DNA from: Syntrophales bacterium
GTDB taxonomy: Bacteria; Desulfobacterota; Syntrophia; Syntrophales; UBA2210
NCBI GenBank assembly: GCA_963662405.2
Contig: CAXXKT010000001.1
Location: 1,440,001-1,504,000, forward strand
DNA: 64,000 nucleotides
Reading direction: 5' to 3'
Part shown: in pieces, positions 9,737 through 55,181 of the stretch
Layout: each line of letters starts with the position of its first letter
Position numbering within the stretch: the first letter of the stretch is position 1
Made by a program: the position numbers and the translations under genes
The notes under the pieces: generated by a model
What the model saw: the letters and a program-made list of their open reading frames with translations, nothing else
What the model was told of the DNA's origin: nothing
Databases searched by the model: none

Positions 9737-9771
9737 GGATACGCCCCCGGTTGAGGGCCGCTCGACTCTCC

Positions 9772-25631: not shown

Positions 25632-25660
25632 CGGTGTTACATGGTGTGAACGGTCGATCC

Positions 25661-27337
<1,677 letters not shown>

Positions 27338-27628
27338 TTATTTTTCGATTATTCCGAGTATGTCGTCTTCGCGCATAATAAGGTGCTCGACGTCGTCTAT
27401 CTTGACTTCCGTTCCCGCGTACTTGCTGAACAGCACCCGATCGCCGGCCTTCACATCCATTTTGATGATCTTGCCGTCATCCGTCTTTTTACCGCCGCCA
27501 ACGGCGATCACTTCACCCTCCATCGGCTTTTCCTTTGCGCTGTCGGGAATGATGATTCCCCCCTTTGTCGTTTCCTCCTCTTCGAGGCGCTTCACGATAA
27601 TCCTGTCATGCAATGGTCGTATCTTCAT
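27338..27628 (-). CDS. groS: Co-chaperonin GroES
   Basis: [28 protein letters not shown] motifs. Confidence 0.99.
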
Positions 27629-27724
27629 GCTTCCTACTCTCCTCCTTACAATTAATTATTTTTCAAGGTAAATATCCTTGCAGGAATCTCAACACTTCAT
27701 AAAATAAACATCAATCCAATCCTG

Positions 27725-30603: not shown

Positions 30604-32028
30604 TTACGGATTTGTGTCTCCGGTATCTCCTTTGTCACCTCCGCATATCTTGATGCTGTATTTATTTATCAGTTTATAGAAATTTGTTCGTTGCATGCCT
30701 ACGGCACTGGCGGCACGGCTGACGTTCCATTTATGGGCGGTGAGCGCGTTGATGACGAATTCTTTTTCCAACTCGACGATGGCTTGATCGCGGAGCTGTT
30801 TCTTCAGGCGTTTCAGGTCATTCACATCTTCAGGCTTCGCGATTTCCGAATGAAGCCCGGATATCCCGTCAGGAAGATCATGTAACTGGATTTCCGGATC
30901 ATCTGCGTGAATAAGGGCTCTCTCCACGGTATTTTCCAGTTCGCGGACATTTCCCGGCCATCCATAAGCGAGGATGCATTTCATGGCCTCCTCCGAAATG
31001 CCACATCGAGAAGACGGATTTCGCTCGGCGTATTTATTGAGGAAATGATCAATCAGGAGGGGAATGTCCTCTTTCCGCTCCCTGAGAGGCGGAAGGAAGA
31101 TGGGGAATACGTAGAGACGGTAAAAGAGGTCTTCCCGAAAGGCCCCCGTCTCGACCATCTTTTTCAGATTCTTATTCGTGGCGGTCACAAGTCGTATATC
31201 CGTTGCTTTTGCCTCCGTACCACCGACGGGGGTATATTTCCGTTCCTGAATGACCCGCAGGAGCTTTCCCTGGAGGTCGAAATTCAAATCGCCGATTTCG
31301 TCCAGAAAAAGCGTACCATGGTTGGCGACCTCGAAAAAGCCCGCCTTATTTGACATCGCCCCGGTAAAGGATCCTTTTACGTGACCGAACAATTCGCTCT
31401 CCAAAAGGGAGGAGGTCAAAGAGAGACAATCCACCGTGACAAAGCGGCTGTCCTTGCGTGCACTGTTTTTATGGATGGAACGGGCCACGAGTTCCTTACC
31501 CGTTCCCGATTCACCAATGATAAGGACGGTCGTACTCGTAGCAGCCACCTTGGTGACGAGCCTGAAGATTTCCATCATGCGCGGGCTGTTGGCGATGATG
31601 TTATCAAAAATCATTTCATGGGGCAGGGCTTGATCCGAGGTGTAGGGAGCCAACATCCGCCCCTTCTCTTCGAGGGCTTTTTTAACGGTCAGGATAAGCT
31701 CCGATGGTGTGAAGGGTTTGGAGAGATAATCAAAAGCCCCGCTTTTGATGCTTTCCACCGCCGTATTGATGGAAGCGTAGCCCGTGATAACGATGGTCTG
31801 TGTTGATGGATACCGTTCTTTTATGATCTCTATGAGATCGGTTCCGCAACGTCCCGGCATCACGAGATCGACCGTTACTACGTCGAACAGTTGTTTCTCG
31901 AGTTTCGCGACGGCCTCATCGACATTCATGGCGCCTTCGACACGGTATCCTTGGCTGGTGAGGGTCCTTCGGCAGGCCTCTTGTACCACTTCTTCATCGT
32001 CAACAATCAGAATATTAATGTCTTCCAT
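30604..32028 (-). CDS. NtrC-family sigma54-dependent response regulator (REC-AAA+-HTH)
   Basis: IVDDE...DLVMPG receiver, GESGTGKE, ELFGH.KGSFTGA, FLDEIG, FREDLFYRL, WPGNVRELEN, Fis-type HTH. Confidence 0.95.
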   Translation of the reverse strand: MEDINILIVDDEEVVQEACRRTLTSQGYRVEGAMNVDEAVAKLEKQLFDVVTVDLVMPGRCGTDLIEIIKERYPSTQTIVITGYASINTAVESIKSGAFDYLSKPFTPSELILTVKKALEEKGRMLAPYTSDQALPHEMIFDNIIANSPRMMEIFRLVTKVAATSTTVLIIGESGTGKELVARSIHKNSARKDSRFVTVDCLSLTSSLLESELFGHVKGSFTGAMSNKAGFFEVANHGTLFLDEIGDLNFDLQGKLLRVIQERKYTPVGGTEAKATDIRLVTATNKNLKKMVETGAFREDLFYRLYVFPIFLPPLRERKEDIPLLIDHFLNKYAERNPSSRCGISEEAMKCILAYGWPGNVRELENTVERALIHADDPEIQLHDLPDGISGLHSEIAKPEDVNDLKRLKKQLRDQAIVELEKEFVINALTAHKWNVSRAASAVGMQRTNFYKLINKYSIKICGGDKGDTGDTNP

Positions 32029-32052: not shown

Positions 32053-33429
32053 CTATTGGACGGGTAATCGAACACTAAAGACGGCCCCCATGCCCTCATG
32101 GCTTTCCGCGATCAATTTACCCCCGTGGTTTTCAATGATACCCAGGCTGATGCTCAAGCCCAAACCGGTTCCCATATCTTTTGTCGTATAAAAGGGATCA
32201 AAAATCTTTTGAATTTCATTTTGACTGATCCCCGGACCCGTGTCTTCAAAGACGATGTCCAGCACGCGCCGCTGTTCGTGGTAAATCGCACTGATCCTGA
32301 GCATGCCGCCTTCAACCATGGCTTGCTGGGCATTGACAATGAGGTTCATAAAAACCTGTTGCATCTGATCCTCATCAAATAAAATCTTAGGGAGATTATC
32401 GCGAATGTCCTTGATAAATTTGATGTTACGGAAGTCCTTGTGATAGGCAACCAGGCTGATTGTCTTATTGAGCACGGCGATGATATCGTGACATTTCTTT
32501 TCAGGCTGGCTTTGCCGGGCAAAATCCAAAAGCCCCTTGATGATCTTCTTGCATCGTTCTGTTTCCCGAATGACAATGTCGATATCCTTTTGGACCTGCT
32601 CTTGATCCGCGCATTCCTCTTTAATGAAGTGAGAGAAGTTGAGAATACCGGTGAGGGGGCTGTTAAGCTCATGGGCAATTCCGGCGGAAAGATTCCCTAA
32701 AGAAGCCAGCTTTTCACTTTGGATCAGCAGATTCTGCTGTCGCACCAACTCCTCGTTTGCCTCTTCGAGCTCCGTGCCTTTTTTGTCCAGTTGCAGCGTT
32801 AAATCAAAGAGATCCTGACCGCGACGGTGAAGACTCCGGGAGATGGAGCTGGTCATGTAAACCGTCAGGAGGATGATGGTCGTGAACGAGGCCATGACCG
32901 TAATGAGACGTGGTGTATTGTGCCAAAGCTCGATGGCGGTAAGCCCGTCAATGCGGTAATGCGGAATGATGCCGAACCAGGAAAGACCTACCAAAACGCT
33001 GACGAGCAGGAAACAGACGATGGCCTGATACCAGATATCGCGACCGGTCAAGAAGATGCTTCCCAGAACCATGTGAAAGACGGAAAAAAAGAGGAATGGA
33101 TTTTCGAGCCCACCGCTGAAATAAACCATAAAAATCAACGCCAGAAGATCGAGACCGATCTGCAGGTTTGCCTCAATGCGGAGGGATTTGGCTGATGGCT
33201 TGTATCGTGAAAAAAACCCCTTGTGAAGCAGGTAAAAGAAACAATTGTACAGCAGGACCATCCCGGCGATCAGCAGGATCGGGAACAACGGCAATTTGAA
33301 ATGGAACCCCTTGATGGCAAAAAAGAGCAACAGGGTCAAGACGAGTAAAAAAACCCATCTGAGCTGAACACACCATCCCAAACGTGCCTGTAATTCATCT
33401 TCCGAGGGCTTATAAATGGGCATAACCAT
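32053..33429 (-). CDS. Membrane sensor histidine kinase with RegB/PrrB-like transmembrane domain
   Basis: About 6 TMs with LRW and SGGLENPF. EKLASLG..SAGIAHELNSPL H-box, N/G1/F/G2 boxes. Confidence 0.9.
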   Translation of the reverse strand: MVMPIYKPSEDELQARLGWCVQLRWVFLLVLTLLLFFAIKGFHFKLPLFPILLIAGMVLLYNCFFYLLHKGFFSRYKPSAKSLRIEANLQIGLDLLALIFMVYFSGGLENPFLFFSVFHMVLGSIFLTGRDIWYQAIVCFLLVSVLVGLSWFGIIPHYRIDGLTAIELWHNTPRLITVMASFTTIILLTVYMTSSISRSLHRRGQDLFDLTLQLDKKGTELEEANEELVRQQNLLIQSEKLASLGNLSAGIAHELNSPLTGILNFSHFIKEECADQEQVQKDIDIVIRETERCKKIIKGLLDFARQSQPEKKCHDIIAVLNKTISLVAYHKDFRNIKFIKDIRDNLPKILFDEDQMQQVFMNLIVNAQQAMVEGGMLRISAIYHEQRRVLDIVFEDTGPGISQNEIQKIFDPFYTTKDMGTGLGLSISLGIIENHGGKLIAESHEGMGAVFSVRLPVQ

Positions 33430-33476
33430 CCCCTTCTAACTCCTTCCTATAAGAGATACCCGATGATGTCAACTGC

Positions 33477-33495
33477 TGTATACGGCAGATATACA
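33477..33495. promoter_or_regulatory. Palindromic site TGTATA-N7-TATACA, copy 1 (candidate enhancer/UAS)
   Basis: TGTATAcggcagaTATACA. Confidence 0.55.
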
Positions 33496-33593
33496 ATCGT
33501 GGCGGGGCACGTGGGGGTGCTTTGGGGAGAGGTATTCCTTAATGCTATATATAAACAATGAGTTGGCATGGTTCGGCGGCGAGGTAATAGATC

Positions 33594-33620
33594 GTATTGT
33601 ATAAATAAAATATACAATAC
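33594..33620. promoter_or_regulatory. Palindromic site TGTATA-N7-TATACA, copy 2 (extended 10-bp perfect inverted repeat)
   Basis: GTATTGTATA-aataaaa-TATACAATAC, about 105 bp upstream of the sigma54-like promoter. Confidence 0.65.
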
Positions 33621-33723
33621 ATCCCCCCCCGGAACCCCGCCGCAGACTCGCATAGAAACAAATTTACAATATATCTTCAATTATAACAGGACATTGCACT
33701 TTTTTACCGGGATCGAATTTCTC

Positions 33724-33740
33724 CTGGCACATTCGTTGAT
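33724..33740 (+). promoter_or_regulatory. Candidate sigma54 promoter
   Basis: CTGGCACATTCGTTGAT: perfect -24 TGGCAC; -12 TTGA instead of TTGC. Confidence 0.6.
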
Positions 33741-33776
33741 ATGAATAAAGTCAAAAATCAGAAGGAGGACCGAGAA

Positions 33777-34262
33777 ATGAACGAACTGAAACGAGCAATT
33801 GGTTATGTCTGTGATATCCCCGTGACCGGAACGAATATGATCATCGGCAAGGAAGATCAGCGTATGCGCCTGATCAAGTACGCCGAGAAAGAAAACATCG
33901 AATTGGTCCATATTTTTGAGGATAATGCGTATACGGAGGATTTCATGAATCGTCCCGGTCTGCAAAAGGTCCTTACCATGCTTCACGAATATGACACGGT
34001 ATTGGTCGAACGTGCCTGGGTCTTGACCACAAGGAAAAAGGACCTGATGCCGTTCCTGGAGATGATTGAATCCAAGCAAACCAGGCTTGTGGCGACGGCC
34101 TATCTGTGGGATTGCCTGCACCAGATACTTCGTCGCCGTTATGCCGATACGCTCGGATTCAAACCGGCCGGGATTATGGAAAAGACACGTTACAATATCC
34201 TGGAGATGAACCCGAGACAAATGGACGAGGTTGTCTGTACCCAAGATGCCAGTGTGGCCTGA
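33777..34262 (+). CDS. Serine recombinase/resolvase-fold protein lacking the catalytic residues and DNA-binding domain
   Basis: AIGY, Q...L..YA, IELVHIFED, RPGLQKVL, DTVLV pattern of the resolvase N-domain. YxRxS replaced by YVCDI and DRLxR by WVLTT. Strong SD AAGGAGG. Confidence 0.75.
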   Translation: MNELKRAIGYVCDIPVTGTNMIIGKEDQRMRLIKYAEKENIELVHIFEDNAYTEDFMNRPGLQKVLTMLHEYDTVLVERAWVLTTRKKDLMPFLEMIESKQTRLVATAYLWDCLHQILRRRYADTLGFKPAGIMEKTRYNILEMNPRQMDEVVCTQDASVA

Positions 34263-34415
34263 GAAGATCAGGTATTGACCGGCAAAACGCTGGTGCTCCG
34301 GTGGACTGCTCAGAAGAGAAGGAGGAGAGATAGCGCAAGACGGAAGCGAATAAAGCGTGTGAACCGCCACACGGCAATGAACGGCACAAAGAGAAGGCGT
34401 CGTTCGGTCGCTTGC

Positions 34416-34447
34416 GAGATGGGGACCATCTCACCCCCTTTCTTTTT
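34416..34447 (+). terminator. Possible terminator after the recombinase-like gene
   Basis: GAGATGG-gga-CCATCTC followed by a pyrimidine/T run. Confidence 0.4.
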
Positions 34448-34546
34448 CAGCGTGACACCTTCCCGTGAGGCGGCACTGTGTCCACAATCCCTTGCTGGAG
34501 TCGGATACAGCGATCAGAAGAGAAAGTCATAAGGAGAACGTGACAA

Positions 34547-35962
34547 ATGGAACAGTTGAACAGAACGAGATACGGGGGAAAGCTGAGGACCGCCGAGGCG
34601 GTGGCCCGGATGATCACGTCCGGCGACCGGATCTTCTTTTCCGAATTTGTCCTCCGACCCGAATCATTTGATACGGCCCTCGCCGATCGTGCCGATGAAC
34701 TGACAAATGTTACCATAGAAGGTTTATGTATTGCCAAGGTTCCCCATTTTATCGAGGCAGACCCGAAACGGCGGCACTTTATTTACAATGACTGGCACTT
34801 TTCCGGGGTGAGCAGGAGACTGTACCGGCAGGGTCTGTGCAGCTACATTCCCCTTACCTATCACCAGGGACCCCGGATCATTCGGAAATACAAGGAGTAT
34901 GATTTCGTGGTGGTGAGCGCGCGGCCCATGGACGGGCAGGGATATTTCAACTACGGCGTCTCCAACTCCCTCACCTCGGCGGCCATTACCAAGGCCAGGA
35001 AGGTCATCGTCGAGATCAACGAGAGCATGCCCCACTGCCTCGGGGGCAATCAGGAATCGGTGCACGTATCGCGGGTCGATTATATCATCGAGGGGAACAA
35101 TCCCCCGATGATCGAGATTCCCCCTGCCCAACCCTCGGAGACGGACACCCTGATCGCCCGGCACATCATGACGGAGATCGAAGACGGGGCCTGCCTCCAA
35201 CTCGGCATCGGCGGTCTGCCCAACGTCATCGGTGCCATGATTGCGGAGAGCGACCTGAAGGACCTGGGGATCCACACGGAGATGCTGGTTGATTCCATGG
35301 TGGACCTCTACGAGGCCGGGAAGATCACGGGGAACCGGAAGACGGCGGACCGTTTCAAGATGGTCTATACCTTTGCCATGGGGACCGGCAAGCTCTATGA
35401 GTTCCTGCACCACAATCCGGCCTGCGCCTCGTACCCGGTGAACTACACCAACGATCCCCGGGTGATGTCCTTCAACAGCAAGGTGACGGCCGTCAACAAC
35501 GCCATCGAGGTGGACCTGTTCAGTCAGGTCTGCTCCGAATCCGTCGGGACCTCCCAGATTTCCGGGACGGGGGGACAGTTCGACCTTATCTTCGGTGCCT
35601 TCAATTCGCGGGGCGGCAAGGGGATCATCGGCCTGAGCTCGACGTTCCAGGACAAGGACGGAAATGTTCACTCGCGGATCGTCCCCACGCTCCGGCCGGG
35701 TTCCATCGTCACCGTTCCCCGATCCTGCGTGCAGTACATCGCCACCGAGTACGGGATTGTCCAGCTCAAGGGGAAATCGACATGGGAGCGTGCGGAGGCG
35801 CTGATCAGTATCGCCCATCCCCGGTTTCGTGACGACCTCATGAAACAGGCGCGGGAGATGAAGATCTGGCTCGATCGTGCTGATGACCAGAATCGATATA
35901 GTTTTGACCCTCACGTTACAGACCGCTCTTCCAATTCTGTTGAAGTAACCTGTTCATTGTGA
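34547..35962 (+). CDS. Acetyl-CoA hydrolase/transferase family; butyryl-CoA:acetate or 4-hydroxybutyrate CoA-transferase-like
   Basis: CLQLGIGG.P, GIHTEM catalytic Glu, SGTGGQ.D, ATEYG, IAHP.FR motifs. Confidence 0.9.
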   Translation: MEQLNRTRYGGKLRTAEAVARMITSGDRIFFSEFVLRPESFDTALADRADELTNVTIEGLCIAKVPHFIEADPKRRHFIYNDWHFSGVSRRLYRQGLCSYIPLTYHQGPRIIRKYKEYDFVVVSARPMDGQGYFNYGVSNSLTSAAITKARKVIVEINESMPHCLGGNQESVHVSRVDYIIEGNNPPMIEIPPAQPSETDTLIARHIMTEIEDGACLQLGIGGLPNVIGAMIAESDLKDLGIHTEMLVDSMVDLYEAGKITGNRKTADRFKMVYTFAMGTGKLYEFLHHNPACASYPVNYTNDPRVMSFNSKVTAVNNAIEVDLFSQVCSESVGTSQISGTGGQFDLIFGAFNSRGGKGIIGLSSTFQDKDGNVHSRIVPTLRPGSIVTVPRSCVQYIATEYGIVQLKGKSTWERAEALISIAHPRFRDDLMKQAREMKIWLDRADDQNRYSFDPHVTDRSSNSVEVTCSL

Positions 35963-36001
35963 TAGAGATCCAGCAATTTCATCGCGGTAGTGGAGAGGTA
36001 T

Positions 36002-37462
36002 ATGGAAGGAAACTTGGGGAAGATGCTGGTGAATACGCGAGCTGCTTGTGCGGATCGGGTATCCCTTATATATAAGGATACGATCGTTTCCTATGCTGAA
36101 CTGGACCAAGCGGTCAATGCCTTTGGTAGCCGGTTGCGAGCCCTTGGCGTAACCAAGGGGGACCGGGTGGCGATCATGCTTCCCAATATACCGGAATTTG
36201 TCGTGGCTTACTTTGCCGCGTTGAAACTTGGCGCCACGGCGGTGACCATCAATGTCATGTCGACCCCCTACGAGCTTCTCTATCTTCTCGGTAACTGCGA
36301 GGCAAAGGTTTGTATCACCGTCCCTTCGTCGGCAAAACGGTTCCAAGAGATACGAAAACAGCTGCCGCAACTCGAGCACCTGATCACGACCGACGAGACC
36401 GCCGGCACTCTCTCCATAGATGAATCACTGGAAAGAGAACCCCACACGCTTGAGATGCCGGAGATCATGGGTGAGGAGCCCGCCGTGATGATCTATACCT
36501 CAGGACTGACGGGGAAACCGCTCGGTGCCGTCCTGACCCACCACAATCTCTCTACCCAAGCTTCCCTCCTGGAGGAGGTCTTGAACGGAACACCGGACGA
36601 CAGGGGTTTGTGCCTCATCCCTCTCTTTCATTCTTTCGGTGCCGTAGCCAATATGCTGATGGTCCTGAAGACGGGGGCCAGTGTCGTTATGCTCGATCAG
36701 TTCAATCTTGAGGCCCTCTTCAAGACGGTAGAGGAACAGAAGGTTTCTTATATCGCCGCCGTCCCGAGGGTTTTCCTGGGGATGCTCCTCTATGAGGGGG
36801 CGGACCGATACGACATGAATTCTCTGCGGTTTTGCATCACCGGCGGTTCGGCGATGCCGCCGGAATACATCCCGATGTTCGAAAAAAAGTTCGGGGTTAT
36901 CCTGTTTCAGGGATATGGGCTGACGGAGGCATCCCCCGTTTGCTCGGTCAACAGGGTCGACCGCGTGCAAAAAGTCGGCTCTATCGGAACGCCGATACCC
37001 GGTGTCGAGGCGCGAGTCATGAACGGCAGCGAATCTTCCCTGGCGGCGGAGGAGATAGGAGAGCTTGTCATCCGCGGCCCCAATGTTATGAAGAGTTATT
37101 ACCGCAATGATGAGGCAACCGCCGAGGTGATCCACGACGGGTGGCTCCACACCGGGGATCTGGCTCGGATCGATGAAGATGGGTATATCTTCCTCGAAGG
37201 GCGCAAAAAACGGATGATTATCACCAGCGGATTCAATGTATATCCCGCCGAGATCGAAAACGTCCTCAGGATGCACCCGGCCGTCATGGACGCACGGATC
37301 ATCGGTCAGGAGAATCTCATGCGAGGAGAGATCGTCAAGGCCCTTATCGTAAAAAAAGAGGGGTTTTCTCTCAATAAAACTGATATTACTAAGCACTGTA
37401 GGACATATCTTTCTTCATACAAATCTCCCCGGGAGGTGGAGTTTGTAGAGAGACTTGATTAA
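36002..37462 (+). CDS. Acyl-CoA synthetase / fatty-acid-CoA ligase (AMP-forming)
   Basis: YTSGLTGKP, QGYGLTEASP, GWLHTGD, GFNVYPAEIE. Alternative GTG start at 35990. Confidence 0.9.
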   Translation: MEGNLGKMLVNTRAACADRVSLIYKDTIVSYAELDQAVNAFGSRLRALGVTKGDRVAIMLPNIPEFVVAYFAALKLGATAVTINVMSTPYELLYLLGNCEAKVCITVPSSAKRFQEIRKQLPQLEHLITTDETAGTLSIDESLEREPHTLEMPEIMGEEPAVMIYTSGLTGKPLGAVLTHHNLSTQASLLEEVLNGTPDDRGLCLIPLFHSFGAVANMLMVLKTGASVVMLDQFNLEALFKTVEEQKVSYIAAVPRVFLGMLLYEGADRYDMNSLRFCITGGSAMPPEYIPMFEKKFGVILFQGYGLTEASPVCSVNRVDRVQKVGSIGTPIPGVEARVMNGSESSLAAEEIGELVIRGPNVMKSYYRNDEATAEVIHDGWLHTGDLARIDEDGYIFLEGRKKRMIITSGFNVYPAEIENVLRMHPAVMDARIIGQENLMRGEIVKALIVKKEGFSLNKTDITKHCRTYLSSYKSPREVEFVERLD

Positions 37463-37513
37463 ACAAGAACAGCAAATCCTCCCTGACAGACGCGTGACGA
37501 AAGGAGACGTAAC

Positions 37514-38809
37514 ATGCGAGAAGTGGTTATCGTAAACGGAGCACGGACCGCCGTCGGCACATTCGGTGGGTCCCTCAAGGATGTACGGTGTGTTGATCTC
37601 GGTTCCCTGGTTATCAAAGAGGCGATCAAGAGGGCTGGTCTCAGGCCGACTATTTCCGATTTTATAAAATCATGCCGTGCGGATGCCTTCGGAGAATTCG
37701 AAAAGACACCGATAAATGAAAAACATTATGATTATGACAATTCTCTGATCCCTACATACTTTGATGAATGTATCATGGGGAACGTTTTGCAGGGTGGTCA
37801 GGGGCAGAACCCCGGACGTCAGGCGGCCATCTATGCCGGGTTGCCCGAGGAAACAACCGCGATCACGGTCAACAAGATCTGTGCGTCGGGGATGAAGGCG
37901 ATTGCCCTGGGTGCCCAGGCGATCAAGGCGGGAGATGCGGATATCGTCGTTGCCGGCGGTATGGAGTCGATGAGTCAGGCACCGTACGGCCTCCCGAAGG
38001 CCCGGTGGGGGTATCGGATGGATATGCCCTTCGGTCAGATCACCGATATCATGGTCCATGACGGCCTCTACGAGATCTTCAACAAGTACCACATGGGATT
38101 TACCGCCGAGAACATTGCCGCACTCTATGGGATTACCCGCGAGGAGCAAGATGAACTCGGTCTTCTCAGCCATGAGAGAGCCCGGGCGGCGATTGCCCGG
38201 GGTGAGTTTGTGGATGAGATCGTCCCGGTCGTCATGCCGCAGCGCAAAGGTGACCCGAAGGTCTTTGATGTTGACGAACGTCCCATGGACACAACCCTGG
38301 AGAAGATGGCCAAACTGGCTCCCGTCTTCACCAAGGACGGAAAGGGAACGGTCACTGCCGGGAATGCCTCCGGGATCAACGATGCCGCTGCGGCCGTTGT
38401 CTTGATGAGCGCCGAAAAGGCCCGGGAGATGGGTCTCAAACCCTTGGCAAAGATCAAGGGATACGCGTCGGGCGGCGTGGATACCGCCTATATGGGCCTG
38501 GGTCCCATCCCCGCTACCCGGAAGGTCATGCATCAGTTGGGGCTGACGGTCAAGGATATGGACTACATCGAACTGAATGAGGCATTCGCCTGCCAGGCGA
38601 TCGCCTGCATGCGCGAACTGGGGATCGGCCTCGACAATTGCAACCTCAATGGGAGCGGGATCTCCATCGGGCATCCCATCGGCTGCACCGGGGCGCGGAT
38701 TACCTACAGCCTCGCCATGCAGATGCAGAAGAAAGACCTCAATCTCGGGCTGGCCACGCTCTGCATCGGGGGAGGCCAAGGGATGGCAATGGTCCTCGAA
38801 CGGGTATAG
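37514..38809 (+). CDS. Acetyl-CoA C-acetyltransferase (thiolase)
   Basis: [24 protein letters not shown] catalytic motifs. Confidence 0.95.
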
Positions 38810-38836
38810 ACTCAACTACGCAAAGGAGAACGAGAG

Positions 38837-39694
38837 ATGGAAGTGAAAACATTCGGCGTCATCGGTGCCGGTCAGATGGGGAACGGGATCGCCCAGGTCG
38901 TTGCGCATCAGGGTGGGCTGAAGGTCATCATGAACGATATCGCAGATGAATTCGTCGAGAGAGGCTATGCAGCCATTGCGAAACGTCTCGACGGGATGGT
39001 CGCCAAGGAGCGGATTACTAAGGAGAACAAGGAAGAGATCCTCAGCCGGATCACGAAGAGTACCAATCTTGAAGATATGAAAGGGGCCGATTTCGTCGTG
39101 GAGGCGGCCACCGAGCGGGAAGACCTGAAACTCGATATTTTCAGAAAACTGGATGGAATCTGCGCCCCCGGGGTTATCCTCGCATCCAACACCTCCTCGA
39201 TCCCGATTACGCGGATAGCGAGCGTGACGAAGAGACCGGAGAAGATTATCGGGATGCACTTTATGAATCCCGTTCCCGCAATGAAACTGATAGAGGTCAT
39301 CCGCGGATTGGCTACGGAACCGGCGACCTTTGACCTGACGGAACAATTGGCCCGGCAGTTCGGCAAGACCCCTGTCGAGTGCAATGACTTCCCCGGCTTT
39401 ATCCTGAACCGGATCCTGATCTCGATGATCAATGAAGGGATCTATACCCTCTATGAGGGCGTGGGAAGCGCCGAGGCGATTGACAGTATGATGAAACTGG
39501 GGGCCAATCACCCCATGGGGCCGCTGGAATTGGCAGATCTCGTTGGCCTCGATGTCTGTCTCGCGATTATGGAGACGCTCTACACGGGACTGGGGGATCC
39601 CAAATATCGTCCGTGCCCGCTCCTCAAGAAATATGTCGCTGCGGGCTTTTTGGGAAGAAAAACGGGGAGGGGTTTTTATAACTACCCCGGCTGA
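38837..39694 (+). CDS. hbd: 3-hydroxybutyryl-CoA dehydrogenase
   Basis: GAGQMG.GIAQ, SNTSS, GMHFMNP, HPMGP..LAD..GLD motifs. Confidence 0.93.
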
Positions 39695-39744
39695 TCGGTT
39701 TGAGCAATCAGCCCAATATAGAGTAGTAGGAAGGAAGAAGCACT

Positions 39745-40893
39745 ATGAATTTTCAGCCAACGGAAGAACAACAGATGGTCAAGGAGATGGTGGCACGGTT
39801 TGTCAATGAAGAGATCAAACCGAAGGCCGAGGAGTTTGACCGAACACACGAGCACCCGCAGGAAGTCGTCCGGAAGCTCGGTGAAATGGGACTAATGGGT
39901 GTTGCAGTTCCCACCGAGTACGACGGCGCCGGTATGGATAACGTCACCTACGTTATGGCCCTGATCGAAATTTCGCGTGGCTGCGCGAGCTGCGGTGTCA
40001 TTACCTCCGTGAACAATTCGCTCTACGGTTATCCTGTTAAAACCTTTGGGACGGATGAACAGAAAAAGAAATTTCTTGCGCCGGTGGCGGGAGGACTGGT
40101 TGAGGGATGCTATGCCCTGACCGAATCGGGCGCAGGGTCGGATGCCGCTGGACTGAGGTGCCGGGCCGAACTCAAAGGCGATAAGTACATCGTCAACGGC
40201 GTCAAGAAATTCATTACCAGCGGCAACGTCGCCGATTACTGCGTGCTGGCGGCAACGGAAGATCCTGCCAAAGGGTACAAGGGCGTTATAAACCTCATCG
40301 TGGATTTGAAGAACACCCCCGGGTTCTCCGTCGGCACCATTGAGGATAAGATGGGCATCCTCGCATCCGGTACGGCGGAACTCGTTTTTGAGGACGCCGA
40401 GGTCCCCGCCGAAAATCTCCTGGGCAAACCCGGAGAGGGATTCAAGCAGATGCTGATGGGACTCGATGCCGGGCGAATCGGCATCGGAGCGCAGGCCTGC
40501 GGTATCGGAAAGGCCGTTCTGGAAGACTCGCTTGCCTACGCACAGGAGCGAGAGCAGTTCGGAAAACCGATCACCTCCTTCCAGGCGATTCAGTGGAAGT
40601 TGGCCGATATGGCAACGGAGATCGATGCTGCGGAAATGCTTTTACTCAAGGCCGCCTGGCTCGAGGACAACGGTCTCGATTTTGAGAAGGAAGCGGCTAT
40701 GGCGAAGATGTACGCCTCCGATGTGACCATGAGAGCCGCCGTAGAAGGTGTTCAGATCTTTGGTGGTTACGGTTACTGTAAGGATTATCCGGCGGAGCGA
40801 CACATGCGGGATGCCAAGATCTGCCAGATCTACGAAGGCACCAACGAAGTGCAACGAATGGTTGTCGCCCGAAAGCTGTTGGGCGCTCGATAA
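39745..40893 (+). CDS. Acyl-CoA dehydrogenase (short/medium chain, butyryl-CoA dehydrogenase-like)
   Basis: ALTESGAGSD, NG.K.FITSG, REQFGK, QIFGGYGY, IYEGTNEVQR motifs. Confidence 0.93.
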   Translation: MNFQPTEEQQMVKEMVARFVNEEIKPKAEEFDRTHEHPQEVVRKLGEMGLMGVAVPTEYDGAGMDNVTYVMALIEISRGCASCGVITSVNNSLYGYPVKTFGTDEQKKKFLAPVAGGLVEGCYALTESGAGSDAAGLRCRAELKGDKYIVNGVKKFITSGNVADYCVLAATEDPAKGYKGVINLIVDLKNTPGFSVGTIEDKMGILASGTAELVFEDAEVPAENLLGKPGEGFKQMLMGLDAGRIGIGAQACGIGKAVLEDSLAYAQEREQFGKPITSFQAIQWKLADMATEIDAAEMLLLKAAWLEDNGLDFEKEAAMAKMYASDVTMRAAVEGVQIFGGYGYCKDYPAERHMRDAKICQIYEGTNEVQRMVVARKLLGAR

Positions 40894-42621: not shown

Positions 42622-43086
42622 TCAATAGATCCCCGCCTCGATGCCGCCGGCGATCGTCTGCCCCAGTTCACGACACCTCTCGAGGATCTCATCCGTCACT
42701 CCCCCCTGTGTTCCCTTCGCGATGACGGGATCATACACCTTTTTGAATTGATAGCCGAGGGCGATTCGCTCGATACTGCTCAGGGCACCCGTTCCGTCGT
42801 TCCCCGCGCAGATAAAGACCACGTACGGTTTCCGGAATACCTTTCCCTCCGCCGGGTAAAAGGTGCGATCGAAGAAGTCCTTGAGCGCCCCCGACATATA
42901 TCCGAAATTCTCCGGTGTACCGATCGCGATCCCATCGCAGGCGAGGAGGTCTTCCAGGGACGCATCGGCCGCCCGCTTCAGGCGCACCTCTGTGTTTTCG
43001 ATGGACGCCGCCCCTTGGGCGACGGCCTGTGCCATCGTTTCGGTGTTCCCCGTTTGGGAATGGTATACAACCAGTATCGTGAACAT
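42622..43086 (-). CDS. Flavodoxin / WrbA-like NAD(P)H-dependent FMN protein
   Basis: YHSQTGNTE.MA, GTPENFGYMSG.LKDFFD. Confidence 0.85.
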   Translation of the reverse strand: MFTILVVYHSQTGNTETMAQAVAQGAASIENTEVRLKRAADASLEDLLACDGIAIGTPENFGYMSGALKDFFDRTFYPAEGKVFRKPYVVFICAGNDGTGALSSIERIALGYQFKKVYDPVIAKGTQGGVTDEILERCRELGQTIAGGIEAGIY

Positions 43087-43134
43087 TGCTCCTCCATCAT
43101 CATGAAAATATACGCGGCAGATACGGCACCACTT

Positions 43135-44844: not shown

Positions 44845-44880
44845 ACGCTCCCCCTTCTTACGTTTTCCCGACCCCAGAAC

Positions 44881-44915
44881 AAAAAGGGCTCTCGATCCTA
44901 CGGATCGAGGGCCCT
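44881..44915 (-). terminator. Intrinsic terminator after EMO gene
   Basis: AGGGCTCTCGATCC-tac-GGATCGAGGGCCCT with a U-tract on the minus strand. Confidence 0.7.
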
Positions 44916-44972
44916 CTCCACTACCCTAATACGAGATACATCTTCCACCTTATCGGTTGAAGTCTCTTCTCC

Positions 44973-47108
44973 CTAGGCCTCCTCGACGGGGGGCTCCTCG
45001 GTCTCCACCTTTTCTTCGAGACCCATAGAATTCCAAGCGATTTCGGCGATATCCAGTGCTACCATCTTCTCTTCCATCTGGCGGTCCTTGATGCCGTCCG
45101 CCATCATGGTGAGGCAGAAGGGACAGCCCACTGCGATCGTATCCGCCTTCGCAGCGATGGCCTGATCCGCCCGCATATCGTTGATCCGATCGCCGATATC
45201 CTCTTCCATCCACATCCTCCCGCCACCGGCGCCGCAACAGAAGCTCTTGGCGCGGTTTCGATCCATCTCCGCCAGTTGCATCCCGGGAACGGCCTGCAGG
45301 ACCTTGCGCGGCTGCTCGTAGATATTATTGTACCGACCCAGGAAGCAGGAGTCGTGGTAGGTAAAGGTTCCCTGGACCGAATCTTTCAGTTTGATCTTTC
45401 CCTGTGCAATCAGATCGGCAATGATCTCGCTGTGATGATAGACCTCGAAATTGCCGCCGAAATGCGGGTAATCTTTTTTGATCATGTTATAGCCGTGGGG
45501 ACAGGTGCAGATGATCTTCTTCACGCCGTACCCGTTCATCACCTCTATGTTCATCTGTGCCAATGTTTGGGAGAGGTATTCATTTCCGCCCCGCATCGCG
45601 GAGTCGCCACAGCAACCCTCTTCCTCGCCGAGGATACCGAAACTGACACCGGCCTCCTTGAGCAGTTTTGCAAAGGCGATCGTCACCTTTTTGCCCCTGT
45701 CGTCAAAAGATCCGGAGCATCCAACATAGAAGAGGTACTCTACATTGGAATCTTCGGCCATTGTCTTGACACCCAGTTCTTTGGCCCACTCGGCCCTCAG
45801 GTGTGTCCCGATCCCCCACGGGTTGGAGTTGTTCTCCATATTACGGTACGTTAACTGCAGCTCGGGAGAGAAATCGGCCTCCATGAGTACCTTGTACTGT
45901 CGCATCCCGGTGATCATGGGGACATGCTCGTTAAAGACGGGGCAGGCCTCCATGCAGTACATGCAGTTCGTACACGCCCACAGTTCGTGGAGATCGATAA
46001 CCTCGCCCACCATCGCCTTCTCCGGCTCCGGTATCGCGGCCTCTTCCCCTTCTTTGGCGGCCTTCTTCGCCGCCATGACGACGGGAGCCCGCTCCAACCA
46101 GTACTCCTTAATGTCCTGATGGAGTTTCTTCGGGGAGAGGGGTTTGCCCGACAGGTAGGCGGGGCATCCGTCCTGGCACCGTCCGCACTTCAGACAGGCA
46201 TCGCTGTTGAAGATCTGTTTCCACGTGAAGTCTTCGAGCTGTCCGACGCCGAAGGATTCGGCATTTTCAAAGTCGGCAATGGGTTCGAGATACCCCGTCG
46301 GCTTCAGCGATCGCATATACTGGTTAGCCGGCGCAAGCGCGATATGGATCAGCTTCGAGAAGGGCAGATACGCGATAAAGCCGAAGGCGAGAAAGGCATG
46401 GAGCCACCACGTCAGCTTGTGAAGGATCCTGACCGTATCGTAGTTGATCCCCGACAGGGTCTTTGCGAAGGCGTATCCCACAAAGGACCACCCACCCCAG
46501 GTGTACCCGTCGACGTTGATATTCACATGAAGTCGGAACCCCTCGAGGAGAAATCCCGTCACGATGATACCGGCGATGAGAATCAGGATAATCGCATCGT
46601 CCGCCGTGGCATCCAGTTTTCCCCGGTAACCGAGTCGATCCGGTTTCTGGACATATTTTCTCCAGACCGCCAGGACGACACCGACGAGGACCGCAAGACC
46701 GAACACCTCCATAATAAAAGAAAACCAGAGATAGAAGCTGCCGTTAAAGAACGGGACAAGGAAGGGAAGGTGGAAGTGGGTCGCATCGAAAGCCGCACCG
46801 AATATCAGAACAAAAAACCCGAAGAAGATCAGGGCATGCATGGCTCCCGGAAAGGCATCCTTGAATGTTCGCGCCTGCAAGAGGCCGTTCAGGAGGAGGG
46901 ACTTGACCCGATCTCCCGCGTTATCGGTCCTGTTCTCCGGTTTGCCGATTGCCTTCCACATCTGCCAGCGCAGATAGAACCCATAGGCACAGATCGCTAT
47001 GGCAATCGCTGCAAATAAGAAAAGTACCGGTTCGGAAGGAAATGGGGCATTCCAGAATACCTCTCTCCCCTCATTTCCCACAGAGTATACCTGTCCGCCG
47101 TGTGCCAT
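44973..47108 (-). CDS. Membrane-anchored heme b/Fe-S oxidoreductase (DUF224/HdrF-like; ETF:(methyl)menaquinone oxidoreductase EMO)
   Basis: NarI-like TM region with His ligands (MHALIF, WWLH, KLIH), CxxCxxCxxxCP x2, two CCG domains. Adjacent to etfAB. Confidence 0.88.
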   Translation of the reverse strand: MAHGGQVYSVGNEGREVFWNAPFPSEPVLFLFAAIAIAICAYGFYLRWQMWKAIGKPENRTDNAGDRVKSLLLNGLLQARTFKDAFPGAMHALIFFGFFVLIFGAAFDATHFHLPFLVPFFNGSFYLWFSFIMEVFGLAVLVGVVLAVWRKYVQKPDRLGYRGKLDATADDAIILILIAGIIVTGFLLEGFRLHVNINVDGYTWGGWSFVGYAFAKTLSGINYDTVRILHKLTWWLHAFLAFGFIAYLPFSKLIHIALAPANQYMRSLKPTGYLEPIADFENAESFGVGQLEDFTWKQIFNSDACLKCGRCQDGCPAYLSGKPLSPKKLHQDIKEYWLERAPVVMAAKKAAKEGEEAAIPEPEKAMVGEVIDLHELWACTNCMYCMEACPVFNEHVPMITGMRQYKVLMEADFSPELQLTYRNMENNSNPWGIGTHLRAEWAKELGVKTMAEDSNVEYLFYVGCSGSFDDRGKKVTIAFAKLLKEAGVSFGILGEEEGCCGDSAMRGGNEYLSQTLAQMNIEVMNGYGVKKIICTCPHGYNMIKKDYPHFGGNFEVYHHSEIIADLIAQGKIKLKDSVQGTFTYHDSCFLGRYNNIYEQPRKVLQAVPGMQLAEMDRNRAKSFCCGAGGGRMWMEEDIGDRINDMRADQAIAAKADTIAVGCPFCLTMMADGIKDRQMEEKMVALDIAEIAWNSMGLEEKVETEEPPVEEA

Positions 47109-47245
47109 AATGTTATCGCCTCCATATAGGAATTTCAGATTTCTAACCCTGCTGGTTTCCTAAAAGGTGAGGGGGTCTTACTACTCCTCATTCTTTTACA
47201 AAGCCAAAAGGATCAAAGATCACTGTAACGCTCGGATTGGTGTTC

Positions 47246-47279
47246 AAAAAAGTGGGGGTGGATATGATATCCACCCCCA
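47246..47279 (-). terminator. Intrinsic terminator between etfA and EMO
   Basis: TGGGGGTGGATA-tga-TATCCACCCCCA with a U-tract on the minus strand. Confidence 0.7.
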
Positions 47280-47288
47280 TATTGCCTA

Positions 47289-48263
47289 TTACAGGATTTT
47301 TTTAACTTCCGCGGTCAGCTCCGGCACGACCTTGAACAGATCGTCCACGATACCGTAGTCGGCCTTGGCAAATATCGGCGCCTCCTCATCCTTGTTGATG
47401 GCGACGATATACTTGGAGGAACTCATCCCGGCCAGATGCTGAATGGCCCCGGAGATTCCGCAGGCGATATACAGGTTCGGGGAGACCACCTTACCGGTCT
47501 GTCCCACCTGGTCCGTCTGGGGTTTCCATCCCGCGTCAACCGCGGCCCTGGAGGCGCCCACGGCCGCGCCGAGAAGTCCGGCCAGCTCTTCAAGGATCTT
47601 GTACTCGTCGGGACCCTTCATACCGCGACCGCCGGAGATGATGACGTTCGCCTCCGTCAGTTCGATCTTGCCGCTTGCATCCTCCTGTGTCTCAAGGACC
47701 TTGGTCTTGAGGGCGTCAGCGGGGATACCCGCGTCGAACTTCACTACCTCGCCCGCCTTGGCATTCTCCACCGCGGCGAAGACATTTGGACGCAGTGTCG
47801 CCATCTGGGGAAAGCTTTCGATACCCACTTCCGCGAAGGTCTTGCCAGCGTACATCGGTCTGACGGCAACCATCTTACCACCATCAATCTTCAGCTCCGT
47901 GCAGTCGGAAGCCATGCCGGTGGCCAGTTTCCCAACCAGGCTCGCCCCAAGATCTTTGCCCTGCACCGATGCGCCCAGAAGCAGGATCGACGCATCATTT
48001 TCCTTCACAACCTTGGCAACCGCCGCGCTGTACGCATCGGTTGTATAATCGGCATAGATGGCGTCATCCGCCAGATATACCTTGTCCACACCATATTTGG
48101 CCAGTTCCGGGGCAAGTCCCTCAACACCGGACCCCACCAGAACCGCGTTTACCTCCTCGCCCAGTTCATCAGCAAGCTTTCTTGCCGCACTGGCAATCTC
48201 GAAAGAGACCTTGCGAAGGGCGCCACCTCTCTGTTCAGCAACTATCCATACACCTTTTGCCAT
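47289..48263 (-). CDS. etfA: Electron transfer flavoprotein alpha subunit
   Basis: ISGGRG, GASRAAVDAGW, QVGQTGK, GISGAIQH motifs. Confidence 0.97.
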   Translation of the reverse strand: MAKGVWIVAEQRGGALRKVSFEIASAARKLADELGEEVNAVLVGSGVEGLAPELAKYGVDKVYLADDAIYADYTTDAYSAAVAKVVKENDASILLLGASVQGKDLGASLVGKLATGMASDCTELKIDGGKMVAVRPMYAGKTFAEVGIESFPQMATLRPNVFAAVENAKAGEVVKFDAGIPADALKTKVLETQEDASGKIELTEANVIISGGRGMKGPDEYKILEELAGLLGAAVGASRAAVDAGWKPQTDQVGQTGKVVSPNLYIACGISGAIQHLAGMSSSKYIVAINKDEEAPIFAKADYGIVDDLFKVVPELTAEVKKIL

Positions 48264-48288
48264 TTTTTTATCCTCCTCTTCCCTCCGG

Positions 48289-49050
48289 TTAAATTACCTT
48301 GGCCTCTTCCCTCAGCAACTTGGCCAACTCAGCGGCCTTCACAGCCGGATCGTCGCCACCGATGATCTTTCCTGGGGCCCTCTCCGGAGGGGGAGTCATC
48401 TTGAGAATCTTTGCCTTCGGCTCAACGGAAATACCGAGTGCCGCAGCGTCCTTCACATCGACCGGTTTCTTCTTCGCCTTCATGATACCGGGGAGAGATG
48501 CGTAACGCGGTTCGTTCAGACCCTTCTGTGCGGTAACAACGCAGGGCATCGGGCTCTCTATTATAAGCTGTGCCCCTTCGATGGGTTTAGTGGCCTTTAC
48601 CTTGCCGTCCGCCACTTCAAGCCCGGTCACGATAGTGACCTGGGGAATCCCGAGCAGTTCGGCCAGGATGGATCCGACCTGAGCGGAGTCATCGTCAATC
48701 GCCCTCTGTCCGCAGAAGATAATATCGGGATTGATCTCTTTGATGGCGGCTGCCAGCGCGGCTGCCGTGTTGTACTCGTCCGCCTCATCAATGGTGATAT
48801 GAACCCCTTTTTCCGCGCCCATGGCAAGGGCAGTCCGGATCGTCTCCATCGCCCGTGCGGGACCGACTGATACAACGGTCACCTCTCCACCATTCGCCTC
48901 TTTCAGCTTCAGGGCTTCTTCGACACCGTACTCATCATAGGGATTCATGACCCACTTGATTCCGCCCTCTTCAATACCGGAGCCGTCAGCTTTTACCTTG
49001 ATTAACGCCTCGGTATCAGGGACCTGTTTTACACATGCAACTATGTTCAC
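48289..49050 (-). CDS. etfB: Electron transfer flavoprotein beta subunit
   Basis: CVKQVPD, MNPYDE..VEEA, ALAMGA, NEPRY motifs. Confidence 0.97.
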   Translation of the reverse strand: MNIVACVKQVPDTEALIKVKADGSGIEEGGIKWVMNPYDEYGVEEALKLKEANGGEVTVVSVGPARAMETIRTALAMGAEKGVHITIDEADEYNTAAALAAAIKEINPDIIFCGQRAIDDDSAQVGSILAELLGIPQVTIVTGLEVADGKVKATKPIEGAQLIIESPMPCVVTAQKGLNEPRYASLPGIMKAKKKPVDVKDAAALGISVEPKAKILKMTPPPERAPGKIIGGDDPAVKAAELAKLLREEAKVI

Positions 49051-49121
49051 AATTGCCTCCTTTCACCGATGAGTGTGAATCTCTTTACTTCTGCACTCAT
49101 CTGTTATTATTGATTGTACTC

Positions 49122-49154
49122 CCGGTTTCTCCCCCGTGGTAGGGGAGAAACCGG
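49122..49154. other. Strong stem-loop between acs and etfB without a U-tract
   Basis: CCGGTTTCTCCCC-cgtggta-GGGGAGAAACCGG. Confidence 0.55.
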
Positions 49155-49170
49155 AAAGAGTAATACTCTC

Positions 49171-54411: not shown

Positions 54412-54426
54412 TATGAGGTAACGGGA

Positions 54427-55158
54427 ATGAAAGACCTACTCGAGATAGAAGGAAAAACGATAGATGAGGCCATTCGCAAGGCCTGTGATGCATTCAATGT
54501 TCCAAGAGAGAAGCTGGGCATAGACATCCTTTCCGAGGGTTCGACGGGTTTTCTGGGAATCCTGGGGGTGAAACCGGCCCGCATCAGGGCCAAGATCCTG
54601 TCGATAGAGATAACCACGGACCGATCACCGGAGGAAGGTGCAGCGACCGTTCCCGTTACCGTCGAACAGGTTCCCGAAGATACCGTTCCTGAGGAAACCG
54701 CCCGTGAGGCACAGACCTTTGTCGAGGGAATTCTTTCTCATATAGGGTTTGATTTTCCTGTCACGGTTGTAGAAAAACGCGAATCCATCATTCTGAATAT
54801 CCAGGGCGATGGGGGTGGCCTTCTCATCGGGCGCGGAGGGCAGACACTCGATGCAATCCAGTACCTGACCAACAAGGCGCTCAACAAGAATGGCAACGGT
54901 GGAAAGCGGATCATTATTGATACGGAGAATTACCGGAAGAAGCGCGAAGAGAGTTTAGTGGCCCTGGCGGAGAAGCTGGGGGAGAAGGCCAAGCGGACAC
55001 GGAAACCCGTGACGGTGAATCCGCTGAACGCGCACGACCGCCGGATCGTACACATGGTGCTCCAAGAAGACAAAGACCTGACCACACGGAGTCGAGGAGA
55101 CGGTATCCTGAGAAAGATCGTTATTGTTCCCAAAAAAGGCGGTAAGGCGAAGTCCTGA
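54427..55158 (+). CDS. jag: Jag/EloR/KhpB RNA-binding protein
   Basis: Jag_N (GKTIDEAI), KH (LIGRGGQTLDAIQYL), R3H (RRIVH). Confidence 0.92.
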   Translation: MKDLLEIEGKTIDEAIRKACDAFNVPREKLGIDILSEGSTGFLGILGVKPARIRAKILSIEITTDRSPEEGAATVPVTVEQVPEDTVPEETAREAQTFVEGILSHIGFDFPVTVVEKRESIILNIQGDGGGLLIGRGGQTLDAIQYLTNKALNKNGNGGKRIIIDTENYRKKREESLVALAEKLGEKAKRTRKPVTVNPLNAHDRRIVHMVLQEDKDLTTRSRGDGILRKIVIVPKKGGKAKS

Positions 55159-55181
55159 CGCTGGAGGGCACCCGGAACGCC

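Follow-up and report, generated by a model that had tools for sequence, protein, structure and literature searches.

The window analysed here is a 64-kb stretch of DNA from a Syntrophales bacterium, and coordinates are counted within it unless another contig or locus is named. A gene at 33777..34262 of its + strand encodes a protein of 161 amino acids (aa; P0001) followed by a stop codon. It was given the working name RESL and, according to Pfam, an AlphaFold2 (AF2) model, fold searches and alignments, it is a stand-alone pseudo-recombinase without the nucleophile. Divergent from it on the − strand are the genes of a two-component system. These encode a histidine kinase with a multi-transmembrane N-terminus, HisKA and HATPase_c domains (32053..33429; Pfam), whose orthologues adjoin RESL elsewhere, and an NtrC-type response regulator or enhancer-binding protein with receiver (REC), sigma-54 AAA+ and HTH_8 domains (30604..32028; Pfam and other loci). 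Judged by sequence, RESL appears to be a pseudoenzyme that derives from a known fold and has taken on a new and well-defined role in regulation.

The open reading frame (ORF) is intact and preceded by a strong Shine-Dalgarno sequence, as an earlier note on this DNA had read: the 161 codons run without a break and AGGAGG lies at 33763..33768 (+), 8 nucleotides (nt) before the ATG. A second possible start, an in-frame ATG at 33741, borders on the promoter element (see below); the homologues, which have 161 aa and start with MNE or MNK, do not use it. The antisense ORF at 33681..34370 (−; 229 aa) gave no Pfam match and is a shadow frame. RESL has no evident signal peptide and is cytoplasmic.

A predicted sigma-54-type promoter with paired enhancer-like sites

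Upstream of RESL, pattern matching located a sigma-54-type −24/−12 element, TGGCACattcgTTGA, at 33725..33739 (+), which is conserved in other loci and reads GA instead of GC at −12. Nowhere else in the 64-kb window is TGGCAY-N5-TTGM matched; the expected number of matches is 0.34. Layouts were compared across 17 distinct loci, by tblastn of the window proteins against all fetched loci, and in 16 of them an element of this type lies 50-100 nt before the first RESL start codon. A scripted scan with GG[CT]A[CT]-N5-[TC]TG[CAT] gave 14 of these loci, and those of L004 and L005 were found separately. The background of the relaxed sigma-54 pattern is 55 matches in 2 x 200,971 positions, that is, about 0.02 expected per 150-nt upstream window. 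The sole locus without the element is L044, in which a fusion gene lies inside a kinase-activator operon.

Further upstream, a palindrome search revealed two enhancer-like sites. The proximal one, TGTATAAATAAAATATACA (TGTAT-N9-ATACA; 33598..33616), is about 120 nt upstream of the −24 GG, and the distal one, TGTATACGGCAGATATACA (33477..33495), is 121 bp from the proximal one. Palindrome pairs 112-125 bp apart were found in 11 of the 17 loci. L011 carries two palindromes 52 bp apart and L004, L012 and L063 carry one each; no palindrome was present in L044, nor in L045 within its 223 nt of upstream sequence. Of the 29 occurrences of GTAT-N9-ATAC in 201 kb, 27 lie upstream of RESL, and so do two of the three occurrences of GTATA-N7-TATAC in the whole 3.8-Mb genome. 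The third one (C1:1132432) was considered as an enhancer and rejected; it is intragenic, has no sigma-54 element near and was taken as a chance occurrence.

The genome also encodes rpoN (sigma-54). The region upstream of RESL thus seems to be laid out like a textbook enhancer-dependent promoter that the adjacent activator would serve, and these features argue strongly for RESL as the first product of a sigma-54 promoter that would be driven by the neighbouring two-component system.

A serine recombinase fold without key catalytic residues

The Pfam family PF00239 (Resolvase) scores 34 bits on RESL, over a gathering cut-off of 23.3, with residues 26-107 aligned to profile positions 17-99 of 145; no Pfam domain was found beyond these residues. 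Recombinase matches in NCBIfam were all sub-threshold, PADLOC left the protein unmatched, and PHROGs gave only weak matches to integrase and invertase catalytic domains. A sequence search of the PDB returned weak matches only, to the TP901-1 integrase and TnpX catalytic domains (E 0.13-0.67), and the ESM Atlas contained only clusters of similar size that are unnamed or named 'Resolvase N-terminal domain-containing'.

Concerning the structure, the AF2 model, built on a 55-sequence alignment, has a mean predicted local distance difference test (pLDDT) score of 87, with values above 93 at residues 1-125 and of 50-70 in the tail. Foldseek placed serine-recombinase catalytic domains first among its PDB matches (6dgc_A, E 2e-7; 3bvp). 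A second search, independent of Foldseek and covering 48,161 chains, gave only serine recombinases in its first 13 rows (Z 14.1 to 9.3), with generic alpha/beta folds next (Z ≤8.3). The earlier note had allowed for the lack of any structural match to this group, an objection that falls with a match of this strength. By fold and by Pfam RESL is in the Resolvase domain family, but it does not qualify as a functional recombinase, in view of its replaced nucleophile and arginines, its shortened helix E and its lack of a DNA-binding domain and of recombination sites.

The catalytic positions were mapped from an alignment with six true recombinases, two from another contig of the same genome and four from the searches. 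RESL residues Y10, C12, I14, Q28, D49, R59, W81, V82 and T85 correspond to resolvase Y6, R8, S10, Q19, D36, R45, D67, R68 and R71, respectively. Olorunniji and Stark give Y6, R8, S10, D36, R68 and R71 as crucial in Tn3 resolvase (PMC2794168). Four of these six (R8, S10, R68 and R71) are replaced in RESL and two (Y6 and D36) are kept. The nucleophilic serine is gone, with Ile14 in its place, and the equivalents of Y6, Q19, D36, R45-P-G and the IDT motif remain. The motifs listed in the earlier note, both the altered (YVCDI, YT, WVLTT) and the kept ones (GY, Q, IFED, RPGL, DTVLV), are all present, as are its three cysteines, at positions 12, 113 and 154. Its statement that every catalytic residue is replaced was overstated: it holds for the equivalents of S10, R8, D67, R68 and R71, but not for those of Y6, Q19, D36 and R45.

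The architecture has changed as well. An extra beta-hairpin (residues 14-23) occupies the place where helix A begins in recombinases, and helix E is a stub of about 15 residues (113-127) in which the recombinase E-helix motif is unaligned. Neither Pfam nor the AF2 model shows a helix-turn-helix (HTH), recombinase or zinc-ribbon DNA-binding domain, in agreement with the earlier note; the protein ends in a short unfolded tail of 34 residues (128-161, pLDDT 50-70). Recombination-site-like repeats flanking RESL were not found: there are no inverted repeats in 32500-36000, where the sole notable direct repeat is the enhancer pair. The setting is chromosomal, with regulatory and metabolic neighbours, and does not resemble a mobile element. 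Because the nucleophile, three arginines, D67, most of helix E and the DNA-binding domain have been lost, RESL cannot, on the evidence of its sequence and fold, perform serine-recombinase chemistry, that is, cut or rejoin DNA.

Loss of catalysis could leave DNA binding in place, through the helix-E stub and a basic tail, for instance to shape the enhancer-promoter loop or to regulate other genes. Ancestral recombinases touch DNA through the catalytic domain and helix E, and the equivalents of Y6, Q19, D36, R45 and, family-wide, R71 are kept. The charges point in two directions: the family tails are net basic (median +3, up to +13), as is the helix-E stub (median +2), but the family core is slightly acidic (median −3) and the window protein has a net charge of about −1, an isoelectric point of 5.96 and a non-basic tail. 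With helix E limited to the stub and no HTH or zinc-ribbon domain in the protein, a DNA-binding role seems quite unlikely.

The earlier note had also proposed a dominant-negative inhibitor, which would form dead heterodimers with an active serine recombinase. RESL does retain the fold of the catalytic domain and, in part, the dimerisation element helix E, and the genome has two true recombinases that could serve as partners. These only true PF00239 genes form an adjacent pair on another contig (C2:288651-290018; L022 and L023), encoding a small (~215 aa, RVST, SRLGR, C-terminal HTH-like) and a large (~550 aa) serine recombinase, and are probably part of a mobile element. No recombinase gene was found at any of the 17 RESL loci. 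The distance to the possible partners, the co-inheritance of RESL with the two-component system described below, the long and well-supported branches that part its family from true recombinases and the lack of flanking recombination-like repeats make this proposal highly improbable, and it is not retained.

A rare family under purifying selection

A word-indexed search gave 21 close homologues (134-183 aa, E ≤0.001) among 28 candidates, all with PF00239, and some of these homologues are labelled 'recombinase family protein' or 'DNA invertase Pin-like' in the source databases. In an exhaustive HMMER search of 1.84 billion representatives (50% identity), 65 proteins were found at E ≤0.001, 35 at ≤1e-10 and 5 at ≤1e-30.

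Residue frequencies were counted in 55 of the 80 family proteins, excluding fusions, fragments and near-duplicates. Serine is never present at position 14 (S10; 0/55), where the residues listed are Ile (27), Val (15), Met (3), Pro (2), Phe (2), Thr (2) and Leu (1). Position 81 (D67) is Trp in 44/55 and Asp in none, and only 2/55 have Arg at position 82 (R68). Position 12 (R8) is variable, with Cys in 20, Ser in 12, Arg in 8 and Ala in 4 among others. Position 85 (R71) is still Arg in 43/55, and the Thr found there is exclusive to the window protein. On the other hand, the positions kept from recombinases are maintained: Y10 in 53/55, Q28 in 54/55, R59 in 52/55 and an acidic residue at D49 in nearly all (48 Asp and 5 Glu). 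The family has its own near-invariant residues too, namely E78 (48 Glu and 6 Asp), R79 (51/55), W81, W111 (51/55), D112 (54/55), Q116 (52/55) and R119 (54/55); E48 (49/55) and S115 (46/55) are also frequent.

The cysteines are less constant. Cys12 is invariant in the close family only (21/21) and C113 is Cys in 30/55. This weakens the idea of a functional cysteine at the former active site, which fits the close homologues but not the wider family, with Cys12 in 20/55. The conservation mapping of YxCDIP and WDC that had been recommended gave a similarly divided answer, W111 and D112 being conserved family-wide and the two cysteines variable outside the close family.

The near-invariant acids at the strand ends (E48, D49, E78 and D112, with Asp or Glu in 53/55 at D49 and 54/55 at E78) could suggest an enzyme with a new chemistry, such as a metal-dependent phosphatase, phosphotransferase or nuclease that would use D13, E48/D49, E78 and D112. 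Receiver-domain fusions, which also occur in this family, often have enzymatic outputs. However, D49 and D112 are not novel, since they were inherited from recombinases (D36 and the IDT motif), and no likeness to hydrolases was detected in Pfam, NCBIfam, PADLOC or PHROGs, nor in the fold searches above the generic alpha/beta background. An enzymatic function of this kind is considered improbable.

The reading frame is intact in all RESL homologues. The dN/dS ratio between the window gene and its orthologues in the genomes G003 and G020 is 0.19-0.24, an approximate value, as dS is saturated (>1.2). A quick maximum-likelihood tree of 56 domains unites the 38 RESL rows in a single clade (SH-aLRT 98), whose sister group (P0065, P0066, P0081 and P0082) has lost the Ser and kept Arg at the R8 position. 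RESL and this sister group (support 98) stand apart from the 14 true recombinase domains by long branches. The tree pattern is that of one functional shift followed by conservation, and the family is conserved, rare and under purifying selection.

These data bear on the simplest explanation, a decaying recombinase remnant or a mis-called ORF, which would account for the lost catalytic residues and for a protein shorter than recombinases. It does not account for intact frames throughout, a dN/dS of about 0.2, identical substitutions across a deep family or a conserved promoter, enhancers and Shine-Dalgarno sequence, and its probability is close to negligible. Exaptation of the recombinase scaffold, as the earlier note had suggested, is supported by the monophyly of the family, the selection on it and its own near-invariant residues. 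Nor are the closest homologues active recombinases with random differences; they share the substitutions of RESL.

Resolvase-domain proteins without the nucleophile also exist beyond RESL. Besides P0065, P0066, P0079, P0081 and P0082, there is P0071 (268 aa), which reads RVGKSEQ, yet keeps DRLSR and groups with true recombinases. A further protein, P0074, has a degenerate first resolvase domain followed by an intact one and a Recombinase domain.

Regarding the C-termini, Ala is the last residue in 43 of the 80 family proteins, 17 of which end in Ala-Ala, and the window protein ends in Val-Ala (34257-34259). The Ala-Ala terminus was also seen in several of the nearest true recombinases (L027, L028, L029, L036 and L038). 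It may have been inherited from a common ancestor, or it may mark the C-terminus for degradation. A motif, [KRA][KR]P-x-[RKQHT]-[LFMIV]-x-[FW], lies within the last 45 residues of 19 of the 80 proteins (P0022, P0024, P0029, P0030, P0034, P0037, P0038, P0040, P0042, P0043, P0045, P0054, P0056, P0059, P0061, P0062, P0064, P0067 and P0069). It occurs once, after the last repeat, in the proteins with two or three RESL copies and looks, as far as its sequence indicates, like a docking peptide. The tail of the window subfamily is different and is conserved as ...LEMKP+K.D+.VY.QGATMA.

Association with the two-component genes

The loci share a recurring layout, with activator and kinase on one strand and, divergent from them, RESL, often with a second paralogue, and then a membrane iron-sulfur (FeS) oxidoreductase of about 700 aa. 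The full layout is present in L003, L005, L007, L009 and L063. L008 contains the activator, the kinase and two RESL genes before the contig ends, and L002, L004 and L006 start just upstream of RESL and continue with the oxidoreductase. In L011 there is an oxidoreductase fragment, the activator and one gene with three RESL repeats (P0022), and L012 has a gene with two repeats (P0024). In most loci other than the window, the gene that immediately follows RESL belongs to this FeS oxidoreductase family.

Upstream sequence of 1.5 kb or more is available for 14 distinct loci, and 12 of these contain homologues of the kinase, the activator or both. Each of the remaining two (L010 and L012) is the second RESL locus of its genome, and such homologues are present at the other one. 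The kinase orthologues gave weak PilS-like matches with six transmembrane segments.

Two related genomes illustrate how the module is rearranged. In G020, two near-identical RESL copies (dS 0.019) with their upstream regions flank the kinase-activator pair, and one of them precedes a CoA-transferase, as in the window. These copies (L019, 9610-10417 and 16156-16965) were duplicated with enhancers and promoter and have different downstream genes. In G003, an insertion sequence (IS)-type transposase and an acyl-CoA ligase lie between RESL and the kinase-activator pair, which suggests a rearrangement that split the module. The transposase (rve_3/HTH_23) comes directly after RESL (L018, 10183-11379), two further palindrome-like sites are located beside the kinase gene, 6 kb off (L018, 15908-16033), and RESL is preceded by yidC-jag-mnmE, genes found at 52780-56561 in the window.

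Among 61 related genomes, taken as descriptive counts, RESL proper is present in three (G000, G003 and G020) and a full-length kinase orthologue in the same three, with one more genome that matches the generic kinase core only. The FeS oxidoreductase is present in 52 of the 61. G048 had appeared as a further carrier and was discarded, its match being a true recombinase. The phylum was also sampled evenly, and two of the 401 genomes in this sample (G000 and G296) have RESL proper; ten others with profile E-values of 1e-13 to 1e-21 were rejected, their matches being true recombinases in which the motifs RVST and DRLSR are present. Across genomes, RESL follows the signalling genes rather than the cargo, which varies between loci.

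Domain fusions give independent support. The window RESL is the stand-alone form and has no receiver domain, but 5 of the 28 representatives scanned (P0047, P0058, P0063, P0070 and P0075) carry an N-terminal receiver. These REC-RESL fusions fall in two separate places of the tree, indicating at least two origins. A metagenome scan with a REC-RESL alignment was keyed on the receiver motifs, and 76 of its 79 distinct loci are ordinary response regulators; the informative ones are L044, L045 and, by chance, L063. In L044, genes for a HAMP-type kinase and a sigma-54 activator immediately precede the fusion, and an ADP-forming acyl-CoA synthetase is encoded upstream. Two Pfam-unmatched ORFs of 578 and 330 aa directly follow the fusion (6918-9745). 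The fusion in L045 has its own sigma-54 element. As read from the gene order and domains, every arrangement would place RESL activity downstream of a kinase signal, through either sigma-54 transcription or the fused receiver.

Finally, RESL is often present in more than one copy. Tandem pairs occur in 6 distinct loci, and there are single polypeptides with two or three copies. These tandem paralogues and fusions suggest that the working unit is an oligomer.

Genes downstream of RESL and elsewhere in the window

In the window, RESL is followed on the same strand by genes assigned through Pfam to a CoA-transferase, an acyl-CoA ligase, a thiolase, a 3-hydroxyacyl-CoA dehydrogenase and an acyl-CoA dehydrogenase (34547..40893, +). 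This cargo is possibly co-transcribed with RESL: neither a + strand terminator-like site between RESL and the CoA-transferase nor a sigma-70-like promoter in 33300-34700 was found. Further on, the − strand carries the electron transfer flavoprotein (ETF) genes EtfB and EtfA and a membrane FeS oxidoreductase with Nitrate_red_gam, 4Fe-4S and two CCG domains (44973..49050; Pfam and other loci), which form a cluster with an acetyl-CoA synthetase at 44973-51141. The wider region 42622-51141 (−) contains this acetyl-CoA synthetase, EtfB, EtfA, the FeS oxidoreductase, an acyl-CoA ligase and a flavodoxin-like protein, and its organisation is that of the etfAB2 and FeS-oxidoreductase genes discussed for Syntrophomonas wolfei. 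Two ORFs of the window on the other side of the regulators, 25634-27289 (+, 552 aa) and 27335-27652 (+, 106 aa), have no Pfam match.

With such neighbours, RESL could be an accessory or ligand-binding factor for the cargo, involved in assembly, in docking or in the binding of acyl-CoA, quinone, flavin or nucleotide, and serving the FeS oxidoreductase or the beta-oxidation enzymes. The gene lies 46-79 nt upstream of the FeS oxidoreductase in 7 distinct loci (L002, L003, L004, L005, L006/L009, L007 and L063), and in both the window and G020 it is followed by a CoA-transferase and beta-oxidation operon. The conserved Trp, Arg, Glu and Asp residues of RESL occupy the C-terminal sheet edge, the ligand site of alpha/beta folds. 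A study of S. wolfei implicates the FeS oxidoreductase, with EtfAB, in reverse electron transfer (PMC5101538). Nevertheless, the oxidoreductase occurs in 52 of the 61 related genomes and RESL in three, and the cargo changes among loci while kinase, activator, promoter and RESL stay together. Moreover, a REC-RESL fusion sits in a kinase-activator operon, and Pfam and NCBIfam reveal no cofactor-binding motif in RESL. A cargo factor is, in our view, unlikely.

Proposed role of RESL

The reading preferred here is that RESL is an exapted pseudo-recombinase that may work as the output or feedback part of a sigma-54 two-component circuit. The membrane histidine kinase would phosphorylate the NtrC-type activator, which would then bind both TGTAT-N9-ATACA enhancers and fire the −24/−12 promoter. 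RESL would be the first product of the transcript, ahead of the cargo genes for fatty-acid oxidation or ETF-linked electron transfer. The protein, probably a dimer or a higher oligomer, would act by binding through the remodelled face of the former active site (D49, R59, E78, R79, W81, W111, D112, Q116 and R119), and would serve the circuit as an adaptor, for output or feedback, whose target is the activator, the kinase or sigma-54. In the receiver fusions, phosphorylation would control the activity of the RESL domain. Taken as a whole chain of statements, this comes close to an even chance of being correct without quite reaching it.

The binding face is proposed from the model: the kept (D49 and R59) and the family-specific residues would cluster on the former active-site face, at the C-terminal ends of the strands, as judged from the secondary-structure map and the alignment and not from coordinates. 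A complex prediction of the activator (474 aa) with RESL residues 1-132, run with no controls, gave a score of 0.00 and a mark of 0.32, and speaks neither for nor against binding.

Several points weigh against the circuit model. The carrier genomes are few and related, which makes the co-occurrence counts not independent. The −12 dinucleotide is GA or GT in most loci, not the GC of the canonical sigma-54 consensus. In the AF2 model of the two-copy fusion P0024, each repeat is confident, but their mutual arrangement is not (predicted template modelling score 0.55). Furthermore, the putative co-transcription with metabolic cargo would fit an accessory role for that cargo equally well, and the charged and aromatic residues of the conserved pocket could serve to bind a small molecule or to support a new chemistry.

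In more general terms, the RESL domain could represent a previously undescribed class of two-component output or adaptor, derived from a recombinase and working without catalysis. It would work together with the kinase, the activator and sigma-54 to set the expression of reverse-electron-transfer and beta-oxidation genes in syntrophic fatty-acid oxidisers, its own level being fixed by sigma-54 transcription or by phosphorylation. This generalisation is put forward tentatively, as a possibility that is rather more likely to need revision than to hold in full. If it is true, a site-specific recombinase domain has been turned into a non-catalytic signalling part, and a new fold is added to the two-component output and adaptor domains. 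The kinase, the activator, the two enhancers, the sigma-54 promoter and RESL would form a compact portable cassette ahead of FeS oxidoreductase or beta-oxidation genes, a cargo that is central to syntrophic fatty-acid degradation and whose regulation is barely known. The database names 'recombinase family protein' and 'DNA invertase Pin-like' wrongly imply mobile DNA or phase variation.

Comparison with known systems

RESL shares the fold and the strand order of the serine recombinase catalytic domain (Z 9.3-14.1). The best structural matches are the N-terminal domain of TP901-1 integrase (3bvp), the IS607-like TnpA (6dgc/6dgb), Bxb1 (9iu2), Sin (5c31) and the Tn3/gamma-delta resolvase (5cy1/2rsl). 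Unlike these enzymes, it is devoid of the Ser nucleophile, of R8, D67 and R68 (and, in the window protein, R71), of a DNA-binding domain and of recombination sites.

In a literature search aimed at such proteins, at the abstract level, no paper was found that describes resolvase-domain proteins without the nucleophile in a sigma-54 or two-component setting, or RESL as an output domain. The REC-RESL proteins can be compared with response regulators with non-DNA-binding outputs, the RESL domain being C-terminal to the receiver in P0047, P0058, P0063, P0070, P0075, L044 and L045.

Small accessory proteins that are induced by their own sigma-54 activator system and feed back on it are known, such as PspA with PspF, and ZraP, which is encoded divergently from zraSR. 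By analogy, these systems share with RESL the layout of a small gene that adjoins the activator genes, behind a sigma-54 promoter that would be controlled by the activator. PspA and ZraP have no kinship in sequence or fold with RESL, for which Pfam and NCBIfam give Resolvase-type matches only.

As for the metabolic context, the AtoS/AtoC system of Escherichia coli controls atoDAEB, so that a kinase and an NtrC-type sigma-54 activator lie beside a CoA-transferase and thiolase operon for the use of short-chain fatty acids. In the window, too, genes for a CoA-transferase and a thiolase lie beside those for a kinase and an NtrC-type activator. The Ato system is not known to carry anything resolvase-like between its regulators and its operon, the place that RESL occupies in the window. 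The window differs further in that the sensor of its kinase spans the membrane several times.

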